Shown here piece by piece: positions 19,885 to 29,431 of a DNA stretch of 64,000 nucleotides (the first letter of the stretch is position 1; each line of letters starts with the position of its first letter). The DNA comes from Iphione sp. A-MEVVRFRX5 (taxonomy: Eukaryota). Both the position numbers and the translations under genes were made by a program. Under the pieces are notes generated by a model, which saw nothing but the letters and a program-made list of their open reading frames with translations, was not told where the DNA came from and did no database searches. The stretch spans positions 73,470,001-73,534,000 of the forward strand of contig OZ320318.1 of assembly GCA_976226885.1 (NCBI GenBank), read 5' to 3'.

Positions 19885-20146
19885 AAGCCGATTCCCCCTC
19901 GGTACCTTCGCCCCCTCCCCATAGCCTCGAAGGGGTGCGTACTGGGCGCGGCCTCCCAGTGGGCAGTTGTGCTGCTTCTCCCCCGTCAGTGTCCTCCGCA
20001 GTTGCCCTGCGGGTAACCCTCCGCGTCCCGGCTGCCGTGGCTGCTTTCAGCGGAGGGGGTGTTTGTTCCCTTTCAGGGCCTCGATTCGTCGGCCCCGAGG
20101 TTCCCCTCCGCATCCCACTTCTGACACTAATGTTGGCCTCCGCCAT
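19885..20146 (-). pseudogene. third, further truncated gag N-terminus
   Basis: Matches Gag up to EGESA, then runs into the A/T block. Confidence 0.8.
20112..20129 (-). other. 18-nt tRNA-Leu PBS with one substitution
   Basis: TAGTGTCAGAAGTGGGAT (TGG changed to TAG). Confidence 0.88.
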
Positions 20147-20344
20147 AATGAAGACGACATAAGTTGAGGAGAATGATGTTTATTGCTGAAGAGCTTCGAC
20201 ACAACTGACAGCGAATCCAACACACAACGCATTTATATATCAAATTGAAACCCTCCGCAGTATAAATAATACCCTCCGTGGTGCACCCTCCGCACCCTCC
20301 CCACCCTCCGCTAAATGGTCCTCCGCTTCCCCCCCTTCGCTACA
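20131..20344 (-). repeat. third LTR copy (214 bp)
   Basis: Near-identical LTR, preceded by a PPT and followed by a mutated PBS. Confidence 0.95.
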
Positions 20345-20360
20345 CTATCCCCTCCTTATT
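20345..20360 (-). other. polypurine tract of the miniature unit
   Basis: Identical AATAAGGAGGGGATAG before the third LTR. Confidence 0.9.
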
Positions 20361-20808
20361 AGTCCTCTCCTGTTTCCTCTTCCTCCTCCTCCTCCTCTTC
20401 TGACTCCTGGTGGGGGTCTTCCCCTTCGGGGAGTTCCTCCTCTCTTCCGGCTGGCTGTCCCTCCCCCAAGCCGGGGGCCCCCGCCGCCCCGGGGTCCTCC
20501 GCAGGGTGGGCCCCTGCCGAGCCATCTTCACCGCTCCTTGGGGGGGAAGCCAATTCCCCCTCGGTACCTTCGCCCCCTCCCCATAGCCTCGAAGGGGTGC
20601 GTACTGGGCGCGGCCTCCCAGTGGGCAGTTGCGCTGCTTCTCCCCCGTCGGCGTCCTCCGCAGTTGCCCTGCGGGTAACCCTCCGCGTCCCGGCTGCCGT
20701 GGCTACTTTCTGCGGAGGGGGTGTTTGTTCCCTTTCAGGGCCTCGATTCGTCGGCCCCGAGGTTCCCCTCCACATCCCACTTCTGACACCAATGTTGGCC
20801 TCCGCCAT
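20359..20808 (-). pseudogene. truncated gag N-terminus (149 aa) within the miniature unit
   Basis: Matches Gag up to EEETGED, then stops at the PPT junction. Confidence 0.85.
20774..20791 (-). other. 18-nt tRNA-Leu PBS
   Basis: TGGTGTCAGAAGTGGGAT, 1 nt after the LTR end. Confidence 0.92.
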
Positions 20809-20996
20809 AATGAAGACGACATAAGTTGAGGAGAATGATGTTTATTGCTGAAGAGCTTCGACACAACTGACAGCGAATCCAACACACAACGCATTTATAT
20901 AGCAAATTGAAACCCTTCGCAGTATAAATAATAGCCTCCGCGGTGCACCTCCGCACCCTCCGCTAAATGGTCCTCCGCTTCCCCCCCGTCGCTACA
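20793..20996 (-). repeat. 3' LTR of the full-length unit, shared with the first miniature unit (204 bp)
   Basis: Near-identical to 29209-29431 with fewer 9-bp repeats. Preceded by a PPT and followed by a PBS on the minus strand. Confidence 0.95.
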
Positions 20997-21012
20997 CTAT
21001 CCCCTCCTTATT
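20997..21012 (-). other. polypurine tract
   Basis: AATAAGGAGGGGATAG immediately before the LTR TG. Confidence 0.9.
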
Positions 21013-23518
21013 TTAATCCTGACCCAGGATACTGTAACATTCATGAACCTCAAATTCAACATCACCGGCGGTAAGAAACTCTAAACGAATGTCAAATTCA
21101 TCAATCTGGAGGCCTAGGGGCACCGGCCGCACCCCTCTATACCAGTCAGAGAAGAGAAACTCGGTCTCTCCCTCCGGGAAGCCGTCCTCCTCCCTCCTCT
21201 GTAAGCGGACACGGCTTTCAATTACTACACACATTCTACCCCGCCTCCGCGCCACTCGGCTCTTACCCACCGATATCAGAATTGTCCACCCCCGGGGGGG
21301 GTTGGGTTAATGAATTTACCGGCCTCCGGGAGGCCCACCGCAACCAGTCCGAGAGGGTAAGTGTTCGAGAATGACTGCCTTGATGGCCCCCGTTCGGAGC
21401 TGGCAACCGCGGGAGCCCGGTCTCCCCAGCGCAGGAGTTGGATTCTTCTTCCAAGCCTGTCGTCATGGGTTGGCTCGTTCGGGGAAGGGCGGCGCTGCCC
21501 CCTGCCCGACCGTTGGGGCCCGGTTCGGCGTGGGAGGAGGTCCCGTTACCACCCTTCCCGTGTTCGTCACCCTCCGCCGATTGGAGGGGCACCTTCCTTC
21601 CACCATGGCTAGGGCCCGGTTCGACCTGGGAGGTGGGCCCGCCACCGACCCTCCCGTGTTCGTCACCCTCCGCCGTTTGGAGGGGTACCTTCCTTCTAGG
21701 CTGGTCCGGATTTGGTGCGGCAGGAGGGGAGGTTTCGGTCCCTCCCCTCCCTTGTTCGTCACCCTCCGCCGATTGGAGGGGCACCTTCCTTCCGACGTGG
21801 GAGGTGGGCCCATCACCGACCCTCCCGTGTTCGTCACCCTCCGCCGTTTGGAGGGGTACCTTCCTTCTAGGCTGATCGGGATTTGGCGTGGCAGGAGGGG
21901 AGGTTTCGATTCCTCCCCCCCCTTGTTCGTCACCCTCCGCCGATTGGAGGGGCACCTTCCTTCTAGGCTGGTCAGGACCTGGCATGGCGGGAGGGGAGGC
22001 TTCGGTTCCTCCCCCCCTTTGTTCGTCACCCTACGCCGATTGGAGGGGCACCTTCCTTCCGACATGGGAGGTGGGCCCGTCACCACCCCTCCCGTTTTCA
22101 TCACCCTCCGCCGATTGGAGGGGCACCTTCCTTCCCGTTGGGCCGGGGGCTGAGGTGGTTTGCCCCCCAACCTTGCGGGGGGAGGGCTCGGCCTCCCCGC
22201 TTCTGGACCCGTCGCCTCTCACCGATGTCGGAGGCGCGCCAGGCTGACTCAAGGGGTGTTGATGCCTCGCCTCCCAATCCAAGACCTGGCGCGCAATTGG
22301 CCTCGACTTCTCCGCCTCCTCATGACCAATGGGAGTGAGGGGTTCGACCATGGGGTCTGCCTCCGCTTTCGCACCCTCCGTGTAGCACAGTTCTTGAGAC
22401 GGTTTCTCAGGGGTGGGCCCGTCCTCGCTGGACGGAATGGGGTGACCAACGAGGGAGCCAAAGGAAGACTCGCCCCCCTCCGCAGCCCCCAGCGGTTCAG
22501 CGCCCTCGGCGATTCCTCCCGGCTTCTCTGGGATCGTGGCGGGTAGGGCCACTGATGGAGGGTTCGCTGCGGCCAAGAGGGTGTCCATGTCTACAGCCCC
22601 GAATAAATCCTCCAGAACTTGGGCGGCTTGGTCGACCTCAGCTTGTGGCGCCTTCGGCGCCTTGCGTGCGGAGGAGACCAATGTCTGAATTGCAATACTC
22701 AGTTCATCTGGGGTTGGAGGCATCGTTGGAGTGCGGAGGAGTGGTGACGGTACCGACCTTGAATGGGTGGGAGTCTTGAGGAGCGGGGACATGGCCTTGT
22801 CTGGGAGTCCTCCGCTCTTGTCTGCGGCGAGCCCGGCTCGGGCAACCATCGGCCGACCAGAGGGGGCTTCCGTTCGCTGCCCCCCTTCCAGTAACTCCGG
22901 CGTGCGGAGGGCTGGCTTGGCGGGGGTCAGCCCCAGGCCTTTCCCCGGGGTGACCGGGCTGGACTCCGACCGACTGGGCTGGAGATCCGCAGTTCGTATG
23001 GCGGCCTCCAGGTCTCCCGCGGCGGACAGCAGCTTCTCCAGGGCGGTAGGTGTCACGGGAGGGTCAGCGGTCTCGGTGGCGTCGAGGCGGTTGATGGCCT
23101 CTTGGAGTCTGGCCTTCATCCCCTGGGGCGAGGTGGGGGAGGCGGGTGGCTCACCCTCCCCCTCCTCCTGGACAAGCTGGCGGACGCGAGGGTGCGTGGG
23201 GGGGTCGACCGCTGCCTCCGCCTCCCCAAGCTTCCTCTTCTTCGTCAAGGAGCTAGTCGCCGATGCCTTGGTGGTAGCGCTCCCCTCCGCGCTCGCCCCC
23301 TCCGTCTTCTTGGTGGGCATCAAGCTTTTAATCGTCACCTCCCCCGCTGGAGCGGCCTTGACAGGGGTAGACCTCGTCACCCTCTTCTCAGGTTCGACCT
23401 CCTTTTTCCGTCGGGCAGTCGTCTTGTGCACCCGGACCCGAGCCGCCGAGGGAGACCGGGAAGCGGGAGCACTCTCCTCCGACGAAGTCAGGATAGCCGG
23501 TCTCCGCCTCGGGCTCTC
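21013..23518 (-). pseudogene. long accessory ORF of unknown function (disordered region, 7 repeats, short C-terminal putative domain)
   Basis: ORFs 22031-23431 and 21263-21985 share one frame, split by GAG>TAG at 22031-22033. Removing one base of the G8 run 21294-21301 joins ORF 21013-21270, which ends next to the PPT. Confidence 0.65.
21562..22133 (-). repeat. 7 coding tandem repeats (RKVPLQ[S/T]AEGDE)
   Basis: CCCTCC-GCCG(A/T)TT-GGAGGG cores at 21570, 21666, 21762, 21837, 21933, 22029 and 22104, with spacings 96, 96, 75, 96, 96, 75. Confidence 0.93.
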
Positions 23519-23521
23519 TCA

Positions 23522-24352
23522 TCACCCTGTCGAGGTGGACGCCTGCGGTGAAGTTGGTGGCTGGCGTGGGGGTCCCAATGACGGAGTGGGTAGCGGTGGT
23601 GCAGAGGGCTCACTGTCCCACGAGGAGGGAAGTCTGGCTTTCTTTCTCTTGGGTGGAGTGGGGGTACTGTCCCGGTGGCGTGACCTCCGGTGTTCGTGCG
23701 ACCCCTCAACCCGCTCTCGGCTCCTCTTCTTGTCCTTGTGGCGGCCACCATGGCGAGATCTGGCTGAGTCGGACGTCCCGCTTCCCGTCTCCCCCTCGGC
23801 CTCTTTGGGGCGGCGGAGCCGCCCCCGCAAGGTGGTGGACCCTGGCTTCTTGTAGAATTCGTAATATTCTTCCTTCATTCGAGGTAGCAGTTTCTGTGCC
23901 CCTCCCTCGGCCAGGTGGGTCTTCGAATCCAGGTGCCGCCTCAGATTGTCCTTGCGCATAAAGATCTTCCCATCGCACTTCTCTCCTCCACATCCCCACG
24001 CAAAGCCCTCAGAGCTATGGGTCTGCACGTGTCTCTTAAGATTGTCCTTGCGGTCGCAGACCTTCTCGCAGAGTGGGCAGGGATATTCGTCTTTCTGGCT
24101 CTTCCTCATGGTGTCGAATGATGAGCATCCCCTGGGGCGAGTGTCACTTATATTCGAATCTGGCGCCGCAGCATCCTCCGCTCGATTTTCATTGGTTGGT
24201 AGCTTCCCTCCGCATCGCAGCCCCCTCCGCATTCCTCGTCCGCCCCTTTGATTGGCCACTTCGTTTTGAACTCCAACGGCTTTAGGTTTGCGGAGGTCCT
24301 CTGCCCTCTCCTCAGTTCTCCCTCCGCTTTTCTCGATGCGGAGGGTGGCCAC
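23522..24352 (-). CDS. two-C2H2-zinc-finger segment, in frame with and contiguous to the integrase C-terminus
   Basis: CPLCEKVCDRKDNLKRHVQTH and CGGEKCDGKIFMRKDNLRRHLDSKTH (23915-24079), followed by a basic/Ser-rich region. No stop lies between VVHADLLKP and this ORF. Confidence 0.85.
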   Translation of the reverse strand: MATLRIEKSGGRTEERAEDLRKPKAVGVQNEVANQRGGRGMRRGLRCGGKLPTNENRAEDAAAPDSNISDTRPRGCSSFDTMRKSQKDEYPCPLCEKVCDRKDNLKRHVQTHSSEGFAWGCGGEKCDGKIFMRKDNLRRHLDSKTHLAEGGAQKLLPRMKEEYYEFYKKPGSTTLRGRLRRPKEAEGETGSGTSDSARSRHGGRHKDKKRSRERVEGSHEHRRSRHRDSTPTPPKRKKARLPSSWDSEPSAPPLPTPSLGPPRQPPTSPQASTSTG

Positions 24353-24379
24353 GACAGCGCTATCTTCCCCCCGGGCCCC

Positions 24380-25420
24380 TGGCTTCAGGAGGTCGGCGTG
24401 TACTACTCTTTCTCACCGCCCCTTCTTGATGCGATAGACGGCGGCCGAGAGCTGCTTGCTGACCGGTATTTGCCTTGCCAGTATCGCTGTAACTTAGGGG
24501 ATAGCCCCGGCTTTTTCAACGGCAGGAAAAGGTACACCTCCTCCCCTACCGCGAAGTTTCGGGGCCGCACTCGGTGGTTGTACCAGTCGGTCTGGCGCTG
24601 GATTCCCTCCCCTAACCACTGGTTGGCCAGTTGATGGGCTTGTTTCATGCGTTCCATCTGCTCCTGGACATACGGTCCAACCTCCGCTCCTCCCTCCTGT
24701 GGGGGGGCCTCCGTAAGCTGCCTCGACGGGGAGTGTAGTCTCCCGATTCAGGATGAGGAAGTTTGGGGAGAATCGAGTGGTTCGGTGGGGGGTTGCCCGA
24801 TACGCAGCCGTTACAAACGGTAGCCGAAGATCCCAATCACGTTGATCTTCCTGGACCATCATTGCGAGCATATGCTCTAGCATTCGGTTGAACCTCTCCA
24901 CCACTCCATCGGCTTGGGGATGGTAGGGGGTGGTCCTGGTCTTCTGAAATCCGCAACCACTGAGCAGCTGGGCCACTAGTTCTGCCTCAAAGTTCCGGCC
25001 TTGATCGCTGTGGATTACTCGGGGAGGCCCAAACCGACAAATCACCTCCCTCATCAACACCTCCGCAGTAGCCTCCGCGGTTTGTTCCTTGAGCGGGAAG
25101 GCCTCCGCCCATTTACTAAAATGATCCCCTACCACCAGGATGTACTTGTTGGCCTGGGGCGTCCTCGGAAATGGTCCGGCGATGTCCACGGCTACCAACT
25201 CCCAAGGTCCCGGACTCTGGCGATGCTGTAGTAGAGTTCGTTTCCTCCGACTGGGCCCCTTCGCCTCCAGACAACGCGGGCAGGCCGTTCCCCACACAAT
25301 CAAGTCCCGAGTCATTCCCGGCCAGAAATACTTCCCCCGGAGGAGACCAGCCATTTTCTGAGGGCCAAGATGGCCACCCATGACTCCCTGGTGAATTATC
25401 GTCCAGCACTCCTTTCGTAG
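24380..25420 (-). pseudogene. pol: Pol part 2: integrase, disrupted by two compensating frameshifts and a TGA
   Basis: HHCC (H...GGHLG...CPRC), VAVDIAGP, IHSDQG, GVVERFN, then SPKLQRYWQGKY and VYRIKKGR*ERVVHADLLKP. Lesions: +1 at 24701-24707, -1 near 24463, TGA at 24413-24415. Confidence 0.92.
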
Positions 25421-28049
25421 GGGGGGGGACCCAGGCTTGCCACCAGGCCCTTCCGTCTTCATGTTCCCACCTCCGCACGATCAGTCCTCCGCGAGCCTGT
25501 AGTCGTTTCCACTCCCCTACCAGCCGTCGCTCTTCCCAGCTGGTCTCTGTCTTGACCTCGGGGGGGCCTTCCCCCCGCTCCAGCCGTCCTAGTAACTCGC
25601 CCCCAATCGGGTCCGCTAGGGTGTCTCTAGCCATGGCGGATGATGAAGGAGCCTCCGCCCTCACTTCCGCAGTCAGAATAGCAGTCGTCTCCTCGGGCTC
25701 TCGTTGGCCGCACTGTTTACATGGCCGCCTTGACAACCCGTCGGCATTGTTGTGTACCCTCCCTGGCCAATGTATCACTTCCACCTCTCGACAGGCCAAT
25801 TCTTCTAGCCAGCGCGCCATTTGGCCCTCCGGCTCTTTGAAGTTCATGAGCCACCGGAGGCTCCCATGGTCTGTGCGAACCACTACCTTCCTTCCGCTAA
25901 CGTAGGTCTTGAATTTCCGGAGGGCGAAGATCACAGCTAGCAGCTCCTTCCGAGTTACGCAATAGCGTTGCTCGGGCTTGGTGAGGGCTCGACTAGCATA
26001 CATCAGCACTCTCTCCCGGCCGTCCTGCTCCTGGGAGAGGACTGCACCCACTCCTTCGCCGGAAGCGTCAGTGTCCACGATTAGGCGCCCTTCTGGCTGA
26101 GGGTATCCCAGGATGGGTGCGGAAGTTAGGCAATGCTTAAGATCTTCAAAGGCGGCTTCCTCTTCACTTCCCCACCAGAACTCCGCTTCTTTGTCCAACA
26201 GTCGATGAAGGGGGGCGGCTCGCCGCGCAAAGTCTCGGATAAATGAGCGGTAATAAGAGGCTAAACCCAGGAAGGCACGGAGACTGGCCAAGGTCACCGG
26301 AACTGGCCACTCTGCTACGGCTTGAACCTTCTCCGGGTCAGGACGGACCCCACCTGCACTAACGATATGGCCGAGGTACTGTACCTGTTCTCGGAGGAGC
26401 TGGCACTTGCTAGGTTTCACTTTGAGACCGGCGGCCTCCAGCCGTTGGAGCACCTCCGCCAGGCGGTCACACATCTCCCCCACCGTCTTGGCCATGATGA
26501 TGACATCGTCCAAGTACACAAGGCAGGAGTCCCCGATCAGACCGCGGAGGACGACATCCATCAATCGTTCGAATGTGGAGGGGGCGTTACAGAGACCGAA
26601 GGGCATGACCCGGAACTGGTAGAGTCCGGATGGAGTGCAAACGGCCGTCTTCGGGCGGTCCTCTGACCGGACCGCTACTTGCCAATACCCAGAAGCCAGG
26701 TCGATCACCGTGAAATACCTGGCTCCGGCCAGCGCATCCAGGGTGTTATCCACGCGTGGTAGGGGGTAAGCATCCTTGCGCGTTCGTTCGTTGAGCTGTC
26801 GGAAGTCTATATGAAACCGGCATTCCCCACTCCGCTTCTTGACCAGTACCACCGGTGAGGCCCACGGGCTGCTGGAGGGTTCCAACACCCCTTGTCGTAC
26901 CATTTTTTTGATCTCCGCCTCCGCGATGCGCATTTTATGGGGTGGAAGATGTCGGAACCTCTGTCGCACCGGGGCGGCCTCCCCTGTATGAATTTCATGC
27001 TCAACGAGAGTGGTGCGCCCTAGATCGGTACCCTCCCTCTGGAAGGCGCGGCGGTGAGTCCAAAGCACCTGCCTCAGTCGCTCCCGCTCTTTCACCGTGC
27101 TTCCCGAGGGCAGCTCGGACATTAGCTCTTTGATTAGCCGTGCGTAGAGGGACTCCTCTGCCTCACCCTCCTCCTTAGCTGGTACCTCACCTAATGCCCT
27201 AGGTTCGCCTGGATCGTCTTCCCTCCACAGTTCCTCCTCGACCTCCTCCGCCTCCGCTACCTGCGTCCCCCTCCGTAGCCAGACCTCCCCCTCCGCCACA
27301 TTCAGACAGAGGAGTTGGGCCCGTCCATTGTCCACGTTAGCCACTGCATGTGGCACTCGCACCCCCGCTCGCTGTTCCAGCGCGGGGACCGGTCCTACAA
27401 TCCATTCGCCCCCTTGGGCCTGACCGATGGTCACCGAGATAAGGGTCTTGGCCCGGGCTTCCAAACAGGTGTCCTGTGCCAGCTGTACTCGTTCTGGTCG
27501 CGCTCTGTTCTTCCTGATGGTGATTGTCCCGGTGGCTGTGTCCACTACAGCCCTCCTCCGGCGGAGGGCGTCCATCCCCAGGATGGCAGCTTGCTCCACC
27601 TCTGCAACCAGGGCTTCCAACGTCCAGGGTGTCTCCCCGAAGACCACCGTCACCTCGGTCCTCCCCACACAGGGGAAGGGCGCCCCGTTGGCGGCAATGA
27701 TGCGTCGCCCTGGTAGGACCGTGACAGGCAGGCAGAGGGCCTCCGCCGTTCGCACCGCGAGGATGGTGGTTGAGGCTCCTGTGTCCACCAGCCAGGTCAT
27801 TTCTTGGCCTCCGACCTTCCCTCGTAGCCCTAGCGCCCGCCCCCTTAGGACTGTGAGGGCTTCGTCTTCCTCCTTCGGCGGCATGGCCGCCCTCTTCTGG
27901 AGCCAGTCATTGAGCTGTTCCTTGGGGATGGACTCCTCCGCCGCCTCTCCCTGTCCCCTTACAGGGAGGGCGGCACGTCGTTTTCCGCCGGCTTCGGCCG
28001 AGAAGGGCAATCCCGTTTGAAATGCCCCTCCTTCCCACAGCGGAAGCAC
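25420..28049 (-). CDS. pol: Pol part 1: aspartic protease, reverse transcriptase, RNase H (in -1 frame to gag)
   Basis: LVDTGAS (PR); WASPVVLV, DAYPLP, MPFGLCNAP, YLDD (RT); VDTDAS, ELLAV, ADGLSR (RH). The frame switches at the G9 run 25420-25428. Confidence 0.95.
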
Positions 28050-29224
28050 CCGGTTCGACTGCCCGTTGCTGGACCTTGTTCCAACCGCCTCTCTAGCTGG
28101 TCTAGCTTCTTAGCGAGTCGGTCCAAGAAGTCGTCTTCTCGCTTGGCCCGGGCGTCTCCCTCCACCGTCGACAGCGAGTGGCAGCCAGCCCTTCCGCCAT
28201 AGGCTTTCCCGGTCGGTTCCCTTTCCCTCCGGCCCTGGAAATAGGCCTCCCCAAAGAGGGCCTCCGATACTGCCGCGCGGAAGTTGGCCACCCTCTGCTG
28301 CACCACCCACTTCCTCACCTTCTCATCCACAATCGCCTGGATGAAGCTATCCCGGCAGAGCTCATCTGCCCATTGCCCTCGTACCCCCGGGTATGCCCGT
28401 TTCACCAGGTTCTCCACTTCGTCGGCCAGTTGGGATAAGTCGGCCTCGCCTTGCTTGTGGGTCTTTAACTGCTGTTTAAATAGGTCCACCTGATCTGGCG
28501 ACCGGAAGCGACTGCGGAGGGCCTCCACGAACTTCTGGTAGGCCCGTGGATCGTGGACCCGCACGCCGGAGTTCCGCATGGTGGTCCGTGCCGGACCACG
28601 GAGACTGATTCCGAGATGAATGGCCTTCTCCTTGGTTGTCCATCGATTGGCGGCGGCGACGAGGCCGAAGTGGTGAAGGTAATCGTCAAGGTCCGTCGAG
28701 CCATCGTATGGCTCGGGCTTAGCTCTACCCTTCCGGGGCCGCTCATCTGAGTCCTCTCCTGTTTCCTCTTCCTCCTCCTCCTCCTCTTCTGACTCCTGGT
28801 GGGGGTCTTCCCCTTCGGGGAGTTCCTCCTCTCTTCCGGCTGGCTGTCCCTCCCCCAAGCCGGGGGCCCCTGCCGCCCCGGGGTCCTCCGCAGGGTGGGC
28901 CCCTGCCGAGCCGTCTTCACCGCTCCTTGGGGGGGAAGCCGATTCCCCCTCGGTACCTTCGCCCCCTCCCCATAGCCTCGAAGGGGTGCGTACTGGGCGC
29001 GGCCTCCCAGTGGGCAGTTGCGCTGCTTCTCCCCCGTCGGCGTCCTCCGCAGTTGCCCTGCGGGTAACCCTCCGCGTCCCGGCTGCCGTGGCTGCTTTCT
29101 CCGGAGGGGGTGTTTGTTCCCTTTCAGGGCCTCGATTCATCGGCCCCGAGGTTCCCCTTCGCAGTCCACTTCTGTGGGCGTGGGTTCGAATCCCACTTCT
29201 GACACCAATGTTGGCCTCTGCCAT
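27959..29224 (-). CDS. gag: Gag (421 aa)
   Basis: Capsid-type PEPYDGSTDLDDYLHHFGLVAAANRW...LGISLRGPA and a C-terminal CFRCGKEGHFKRDC zinc knuckle. The ATG lies inside the LTR. Confidence 0.93.
   Translation of the reverse strand: MAEANIGVRSGIRTHAHRSGLRRGTSGPMNRGPEREQTPPPEKAATAAGTRRVTRRATAEDADGGEAAQLPTGRPRPVRTPSRLWGGGEGTEGESASPPRSGEDGSAGAHPAEDPGAAGAPGLGEGQPAGREEELPEGEDPHQESEEEEEEEEETGEDSDERPRKGRAKPEPYDGSTDLDDYLHHFGLVAAANRWTTKEKAIHLGISLRGPARTTMRNSGVRVHDPRAYQKFVEALRSRFRSPDQVDLFKQQLKTHKQGEADLSQLADEVENLVKRAYPGVRGQWADELCRDSFIQAIVDEKVRKWVVQQRVANFRAAVSEALFGEAYFQGRREREPTGKAYGGRAGCHSLSTVEGDARAKREDDFLDRLAKKLDQLERRLEQGPATGSRTGCFRCGKEGHFKRDCPSRPKPAENDVPPSL
27980..27986 (-). promoter_or_regulatory. candidate -1 ribosomal frameshift heptamer G_GAA_AAC
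   Basis: It lies in the gag/pol overlap after the zinc knuckle, pol is in the -1 frame, and no in-frame ATG precedes it within the open pol frame. Confidence 0.55.
29159..29207 (-). other. extended primer-binding site: complement of 49 nt of mature tRNA-Leu 3' half including CCA
   Basis: Plus strand reads T CGCAG T CCAC-TTCT-GTGG GC GTGGG-TTCGAAT-CCCAC TTCTGAC A CCA. This is the anticodon-stem 3' side, variable arm, T arm, acceptor strand and CCA of a class II tRNA-Leu (CAG-type by CGCAG). Confidence 0.9.
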
Positions 29225-29431
29225 AATGAAGACGACATAAGTTGAGGAGAATGATGTTTATTGCTGAAGAGCTTCGACACAACTGACAGCGAATCCAACA
29301 CACAACGCATTTATATAGCAAATTGAAACCCTCCGCAGTATAAATAATACCCTCCGCGGTGCACCCTCCGCACCCTCCGCACCCTCCGCACCCTCCGCTA
29401 AATGGTCCTCCGCTTCCCCCCCGTCGCTACA
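29209..29431 (-). repeat. 5' LTR (223 bp)
   Basis: Minus strand reads TGTAGCGAC...GGCCAACA. It contains GCGGAGGG repeats, a TATA (plus 29311-29318) and AATAAA (plus 29257-29262). Confidence 0.95.

Follow-up and report, generated by a model that had tools for sequence, protein, structure and literature searches.

Foamy viruses encode a DNA-binding regulator, Tas (Bel-1), behind an internal promoter, and its target sites lie both in the LTR and in that same promoter (PMC7390438, from the part of the source available to us). In Arabidopsis, the VANC protein of the VANDAL transposons is an anti-silencing factor associated with a short, dense, often tandem and family-specific word that changes with the protein (PMC5735166, likewise available in part), and in the LTR retrotransposons Tor3b and Tor4b of Oikopleura an internal promoter located in or after pol drives a downstream frame (PMC4402516, in the excerpt at hand). 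C2H2 zinc fingers, for their part, are usually viewed as a weapon of the host against transposons, whereas the retrotransposon described here appears to recognise itself by means of them. It lies on the minus strand at 29431-20793 of the window, i.e. the whole stretch of 64,000 nucleotides of DNA from Iphione sp. A-MEVVRFRX5 that was analysed, and belongs to a young Ty3/Gypsy family, referred to below as family A, of which it is a decayed member (Table 1).

Table 1. Features of the family A copy, with positions in the window
Feature	Positions	Strand	Evidence or remark
5' LTR, TG...CA ends, 223 bp	29209..29431	(-)	
Seven GCGGAGG words within U3, immediately 5' of the LTR TATA box	29330..29413	(-)	7 vs shuffle mean 0.14, max 2
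LTR TATA box (29317-29310) and initiator-like TCAGTT (29286-29281)	29281..29317	(-)	sequence
tRNA-Leu(CAG) primer-binding site	29159..29207	(-)	~49 nt of tRNA complement in the window copy
gag, CCHC knuckle	27959..29224	(-)	first ATG inside U5
pol: protease, reverse transcriptase, RNase H	25116..28109	(-)	frame break near 25415 in the window copy
Integrase: H2C2, rve core, C-terminal tail ending VVHADLLKP	24380..25480	(-)	
Integrase breaks in the window copy	near 24710, 24463, 24413	(-)	
90-codon linker, open in Pol, also putative internal promoter	24110..24379	(-)	
Linker contents: six GCGGAGG words, both strands; CCAAT; TATAAG; TCATTC	24344-24175; 24255, 24195; 24152-24147; 24121-24116		
ATG ten codons 5' of finger 1	24107..24109	(-)	Met in 62/63 copies
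C2H2 finger 1, helix RKDNLKR	24017..24079	(-)	predicted GAG + 3' G/T
Atypical C2H2 finger 2 (C-x4-C, H-x5-H)	23915..23992	(-)	helix position 3: Asp 61/63, Asn in the window
Basic, then Pro/Glu/Ser/Gly-rich tail with tandem repeats	21371..23914	(-)	frame kept in the family
Conserved C-terminal domain, ~115 residues	21013..21370	(-)	frame break inside in the window copy
Polypurine tract	20997..21012	(-)	
3' LTR	20793..20996	(-)	

The element has LTRs with TG...CA ends, a tRNA primer site, a polypurine tract and gag followed by protease, reverse transcriptase, RNase H and integrase in that order, as expected of Ty3/Gypsy. No chromodomain was found by Pfam, either in the frames of the window or in the C-terminal halves of Pol from four families, so that the element does not class as a chromovirus; no env frame was seen in the element, and no Rfam family matched. 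Initiator, CCAAT and TATA sequences are named here by their generally known consensus forms. The first ATG of gag is placed 16 nt before the end of the LTR (29224-29209) and the gag frame crosses the primer-binding site, as it also does in copies L162 and L181; families A, B and C (see below) share the conserved protein start MAEANIG. The primer-binding site (29207-29159) is lengthened, in copy L033 as well, by 27 bases of further tRNA-Leu(CAG) complement that keep the gag frame, as though reverse transcription had overrun its usual stop in the primer. Beyond the 3' LTR (19885-20792), the sequence goes on with a primer site, then a gag stub of 430 bp that is joined to a polypurine tract, another LTR (20344-20131) and a second truncated stub, i.e. 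a tandem of deleted copies with an AT-rich end. Near 25415, ahead of the integrase H2C2, the frame is broken at a homopolymer run, and 20/62 other copies share this break; it may represent either a slippage hotspot or a non-autonomous sub-lineage.

A search of the same genome gave 252 candidates, 40 of them scored, at 93-100% identity. The 63 copies compared below comprise the window copy, 39 other matches (as 10-kb stretches) and 23 LTR pairs, the last being drawn from the first 100 of 241 matches to the LTR ends and ascertained independently of the fingers. Both fingers (Pfam zf-C2H2, E 4e-08) are present in 63/63. In the window, the frame that contains VVHADLLKP (24406-24380) is open from 24412 to 23525, is bounded by a stop at 24415-24413 and is the same as that of the integrase core (1110 nt). 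The preliminary description of this DNA had reported a Gypsy integrase continuing in frame into two C2H2 fingers, and the family upholds it: 39/63 copies are open from the integrase core to finger 2 and 45/63 from the tail motif to finger 2, the breaks in the 24 copies that are closed between core and finger 2 being scattered and mostly private. A conserved stop between VVHADLLKP and the fingers was looked for in the 63 copies and is absent. The stop at 24413, interpreted from the outset as decay, is indeed present in just 4 of the 62 copies covering that column, and the frame break near 24463 in 1/62 other copies. Repair of a single base near 24463 had been proposed to recover the integrase tail in frame, but the breaks between core and tail number two, near 24710 and 24463. 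Nor does the frame end at 23522, as it had been drawn: the stops at 23524-23519 and 22033 are lesions of the window copy, the two at 23522 occurring in 6/63 and 2/63 copies, and Pol goes on to the polypurine tract, about 1,000 residues beyond the fingers, with 2,295 codons in copy L056 and 2,395 in 8/23 of the LTR-ascertained copies. It is confirmed that integrase and fingers form one genuine in-frame fusion in the family. The fingers are, moreover, under strong purifying selection. For variants shared by at least three copies, the finger region has an omega of 0.04 (35 synonymous and 6 non-synonymous variants), compared with 0.09 for integrase, 0.10 for reverse transcriptase, 0.08-0.32 for segments of the tail and 0.54 for the linker; for singleton variants omega is 0.4-0.7 in all regions.

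The same genome contains further young families, B, C and G, with subfamilies, whose Pol cores are 49-70% identical to one another and to that of A. In A, B, C and G alike, integrase and fingers share one frame, and all four keep Arg/Asn/Arg and Arg/Asp/Arg at helix positions -1, 3 and 6 of the two fingers while the other helix positions vary. In family G (L232 after 8084) the 3' untranslated region is ~400 nt long; the Pol stop of A, B and C falls within ~40 nt of the 3' LTR.

In canonical C2H2 arrays the Cys and His residues of each finger are regularly spaced, and TGEKP-type linkers join the fingers. Finger 1 has the classical form (C-x2-C-x12-H-x3-H, with Arg/Asp/Asn at helix positions -1, 2, 3 and 6), but the spacing of finger 2 (C-x4-C, H-x5-H) and the 8-residue linker between the fingers are non-canonical, so that the recognition code may misread the pair. 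At helix position 3, finger 1 has Asn in 63/63 copies and finger 2 has Asp in 61/63, Asn in one (the window, a private substitution) and Gly in one; the recognition residues are thus conserved in the family. The helices RKDNLKR and RKDDLRR match, at -1, 3 and 6, the modules RSDNLVR and RSDDLVR tabulated for GAG and GCG respectively (PMC5260015, in the part of the table accessible to us), and Asp at helix position 2 contacts A or C of the opposite strand (PMC7293014, from an extract). The finger pair of the family is predicted from these residues to read GCG-GAG-(G/T). A GAG-GAG site had previously been assigned because finger 2 of the window copy carries the private Asn; for the family, with Asp in finger 2, this assignment does not hold. 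A model of the fingers built from the single sequence was of poor quality (pLDDT 53) and was set aside; fingers of EGR1, WT1 and KLF5 are among the matches to solved structures. The DNA of the two helices is 73% identical (23930-23969 vs 24026-24065), which suggests that they may descend from an old duplication of one finger.

In the window, GCGGAGG is found at seven places in U3 5' of the TATA box and, counting both strands, at six in the 170 bp that precede the finger region; the other 54.3 kb contain a single one. Nine LTRs from families A-C and their subfamilies contain 5-11 words each, against shuffle maxima of 2-3, and U3 of family A has no alignment to that of B, C or E, yet the words are present. 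Around CGGAG (n=40, five LTRs) only the 5' G (37/40) and the 3' G/T (35 G, 5 T) are fixed, and the site therefore has seven bases, as two fingers would give. The word is not confined to the LTRs: in a comparison of Pol with 200 synonymous shuffles, GCGGAG came top of the 4,096 hexamers (35 vs 10.9 in A, 44 vs 14.4 in B and 37 vs 9.9 in C), and its reverse complement was also enriched (9 vs 3.4, 15 vs 3.7 and 17 vs 4.3, respectively), which points to double-stranded DNA. Ala before Glu is encoded by GCG in 26/41, 33/40 and 27/32 cases (A, B, C), compared with 24-38% before other codons starting with G. Overall, the density of the word is 6.8 per kb in the element and 0.095 in random genome sequence, the CpG observed/expected ratio of the genome being 0.52. 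Loss of CpG is merely slightly lower inside the word (8.1%) than elsewhere (10.6%), so that there is little sign of protection from methylation. Among 19 other loci with the same primer site, most are decayed relatives with decayed words. Two finger-less controls, L205 and L210, have no word in the LTR region, and the Pol of L205 lacks it as well, these being decayed copies in which fingers may have been missed.

Family G, with Ala at position 2 of finger 1, departs from the other families in the last base of the word. Its Pol is enriched in GCGGAGA (12 vs 2.6) and not in GCGGAGG (4 vs 4.2), whereas the latter is enriched in A (36 vs 9.1), B (49 vs 11.9) and C (41 vs 9.3; contrast with G, Fisher P 4e-6), and in LTRs of G the seventh base varies, five related copies giving T 8, A 6, C 4 and G 3. 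The pattern fits a loss of the G/T rule; G is sister to A, B and C in a quick tree, and the covariation of finger and word therefore amounts to one evolutionary contrast. It bears nonetheless on the idea that a host GC-box factor (Sp/KLF/EGR type) uses the word, the element's fingers mimicking it, competing with it or doing something else. The word resembles, and overlaps with, known host GC-box variants, and the structure matches to EGR1, WT1 and KLF5 would suit such a factor, but the bases 5' of GCG, which a three-finger host factor would need, are not fixed, the seventh base changes with the finger residue of the element itself and the finger-less controls are without the word; we consider this explanation very unlikely. 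Binding of GCGGAG(G/T) by the element's own fingers, as predicted from helices and word together, is by comparison very probable.

We turn now to integration. The target duplication is 4 bp long; among the 61 copies for which both flanks are available it is exact in 51 and has one mismatch in 9 and two in 1. The target is a symmetric ATAT-type palindrome, with a TA core in 71/73 and 73/75 junctions (6.6% in a background of 200 kb from 20 arbitrary genome places) and A/T three bases out in 71/73 and 74/75. All 11 of the mismatches in the duplications adjoin the LTR (G at the U3 end in 7, T at the U5 end in 4) and match the nucleotides next to the LTRs on their inner side, which suggests that one-base donor overhangs are sometimes retained in repair. 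Preferential nesting in relatives was rejected, as no element relative was matched in 148 flanks.

From the fusion it had been inferred that the fingers steer the integrase to sequence-specific genomic targets, and an enrichment of GAG-rich motifs at a fixed distance from insertions was named as a test. The fingers do follow the integrase tail, the place of the chromodomain in chromoviruses (PMC2774666, in the portion available), and the frame is kept open. However, the count of GAGGAG within 200 bp was 6 for 148 junctions and 27 for controls with a matching AT site, and that of GCGGAG within 400 bp was 2 for 147 junctions, compared with 8.6; both words are depleted, and no k-mer recurs at a fixed offset from the junctions beyond the AT core. 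Targeting by GAG-GAG or GCG-GAG words was thus rejected up to 400 bp, the reach of the flank analysis, in which old copies mirror selection as well as insertion. ATAT motifs are, furthermore, shared with Drosophila 412-clade elements, where they have been put down to symmetric action of the integrase (PMC3276498, from the passages available to us). Because the targets are AT palindromes and the predicted words are depleted in the flanks, the fingers do not choose the site within 400 bp, and a zinc-finger-targeted integrase strikes us as extremely improbable.

A different role is indicated by the linker between integrase and fingers. Met precedes finger 1 by 7-12 codons in 11/11 copies tabulated across families. 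TATAA is rare in Pol (1-3 per 7 kb), and one such sequence is located at -43 (A), -58 (B), -55 (C) and -276 (G) from the finger ATG, under different amino acids; the TATAAG of family A is kept in 63/63 copies. An initiator-like TCA follows the TATA by 30-31 nt in A, B and C, with CCAAT and words upstream, while in G, where the TATA is 276 nt from the ATG, no initiator-like TCA was found by the pattern used. The relaxed omega of the linker fits constraint at the DNA level. As protein-coding sequence, the linker is open in A, B, C and G over 90, 66, 64 and 414 codons, and none of 2,000 base shuffles left the 414 codons of G open. Since the linker is never closed and also bears promoter-like signs, both a stand-alone and a Pol-fused form of the finger protein appear to be selected. 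We think it likely that a capped RNA from the putative internal promoter would give rise to a stand-alone protein of about 750-1,200 residues. Translation of a regulator from the ATG at 24109, mentioned at first as a side alternative, thereby appears the better-supported function, given the conserved spacing of TATA, initiator and ATG.

Our favoured reading, which we hold to be fairly probable, is that the fingers belong to a regulator through which the element would recognise its own copies and turn them on or protect them. We lean slightly towards a version with feedback, in which the stand-alone protein would activate or shield both its own promoter and the LTR. According to this model, the finger protein would be supplied by basal transcription from the internal promoter and, by binding the word clusters of that promoter and of the LTR, would activate or shield both; the words along the body would extend the effect, and the Pol-fused form would travel with the integrase and bind the new DNA copy. 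The last step has a counterpart in a rather unlikely alternative, in which the fingers, integrase-fused or cleaved, serve in the particle or integration complex by coating the element's own cDNA, promoter signs being secondary; compaction, protection from self-integration or sensing, nuclear import and end capture are candidate tasks. A linker open in four families (up to 414 codons), a word spread along the whole body on both strands and the lack of element relatives in the 148 flanks would all suit this alternative, as would the position of words near LTR ends, 4-5 bases from the U3 end in B, E, F and G and near the U5 end in A. These end positions differ among families, however, and coating leaves unexplained the conserved spacing of TATA, CCAAT and initiator, the Met before the fingers and the dense clusters just 5' of the LTR TATA box.

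The finger protein could also be a self-repressor that binds LTR and body and shuts them down, limiting copy number. Words between TATA and initiator in the LTRs of B, C and G would be well placed for repression, and seeding of the whole body would suit its spreading, but the LTR of family A is without a downstream word, the upstream tandem clusters expand and contract (5-11 copies) like activator sites, the Pro/Glu/Ser-rich tail is presumably like activation regions and all four families have spread recently; repression is in our judgement distinctly unlikely. A self-recognising activator or shield could be taken one step further, as a tentative proposal of self-tagging. Under this proposal, which we regard as possible rather than probable, a seven-base tag would run across the whole element, partly by way of synonymous codons, and its reader would be encoded twice from one frame: the integrase-fused reader might license new copies against silencing at integration, the internal-promoter form might act as a Tas-like activator, and tag and finger would change together.

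Beyond the fingers, Pol continues with a basic stretch, a long Pro/Glu/Ser/Gly-rich region of tandem repeats and a domain of ~115 residues that families A, B, C and G have in common. This conserved domain gave a confident alpha/beta model (pLDDT 86) and matched no Pfam family, no sequence of solved structure and, at E 0.001, no structure by Foldseek; the highest Z given by VIA, 7.4 with an rmsd of 3.3 over 99 residues, is of the size that common arrangements give. No homologue of the finger region scored among 1,047 longer or 386 near-length candidates, and in a representative search the multi-stretch matches were confined to the fingers at 29-49% identity, with nothing specific. Two metagenome loci and one genome locus proved unrelated or finger-less, and in Atlas the fingers matched generic C2H2 clusters while the C-terminal domain had no match.

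A search for further Gypsy polyproteins in which C2H2 fingers follow the integrase had been suggested in the preliminary description. Pfam zf-C2H2 occurs in 0 of the 120 integrase relatives listed, but of the 103 listed relatives in which the tail motif was found, seven (P0187, P0188, P0190, P0216, P0226, P0232 and P0237, the last named Mercenaria mercenaria LOC123529264) continue in frame into Cys/His fingers of other types, each with a Met before the fingers at the usual end of Pol. The seven form a separate branch in a quick tree, their neighbours stopping at the usual Pol end, and the nearest database integrases, P0151 and P0152, end 13-15 residues past the tail motif; the fusion is therefore not needed in close relatives. 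Read-through from integrase into fingers seems, from these sequences, to have had several origins or to be easily lost. A finger of the P0237 type, searched against the genome from which the window comes, gave one match, a host-like finger gene. In the group of seven, the Met opens a Lys/Thr-rich start such as M-A-K-T-K-K-T-E-R-K, which we take to resemble the tail of histone H3; a histone mimic requiring a free N-terminus is possible.

In the open literature, as far as it was accessible to us and with subscription journals, Repbase and GyDB outside its scope, no Gypsy element with C2H2 fingers that read its own DNA was found, and the described systems that come closest each share part of the present arrangement. 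Chromoviruses likewise have an extra domain C-terminal to integrase in Pol (PMC2774666, same portion), whereas the element described here is without a chromodomain, extends for ~1,000 residues after the fingers and gives no sign of site selection by its extra domain. With the 412/mdg1-type Gypsy clade it shares an ATAT-type palindromic target, and the likeness is that of the target motif (PMC3276498, same passages). The clade of P0237 and the six others, a separate Gypsy branch by the quick tree and known from proteins alone, also has Cys/His fingers in frame after the integrase tail with a Met before them, but the finger types and helices are different. In Tor3b and Tor4b the downstream frame is env, coding for a membrane glycoprotein, and here it codes for a predicted DNA-binding protein. 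With foamy-virus Tas the layout would be the same, i.e. a predicted DNA-binding regulator encoded by the element behind a putative internal promoter; the regulator is here, however, a C2H2 pair that shares the Pol frame, the putative promoter is located in the integrase tail and not in env, and one word marks both promoters and the whole body, regulation being predicted from sequence. The short, dense, tandem word of the element's own family is VANC-like, although VANDALs are plant DNA transposons with words mainly in non-coding DNA, while this is an animal LTR retrotransposon with the word throughout Pol by codon choice. The readable finger code makes the pairing of protein and DNA directly testable, and the four young families provide a natural specificity series. 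If our reading is correct, regulatory selection shapes synonymous codons across a whole retroelement, and the element would be the LTR-retrotransposon counterpart, in a CpG-depleted animal genome, of foamy-virus Tas and plant VANC.
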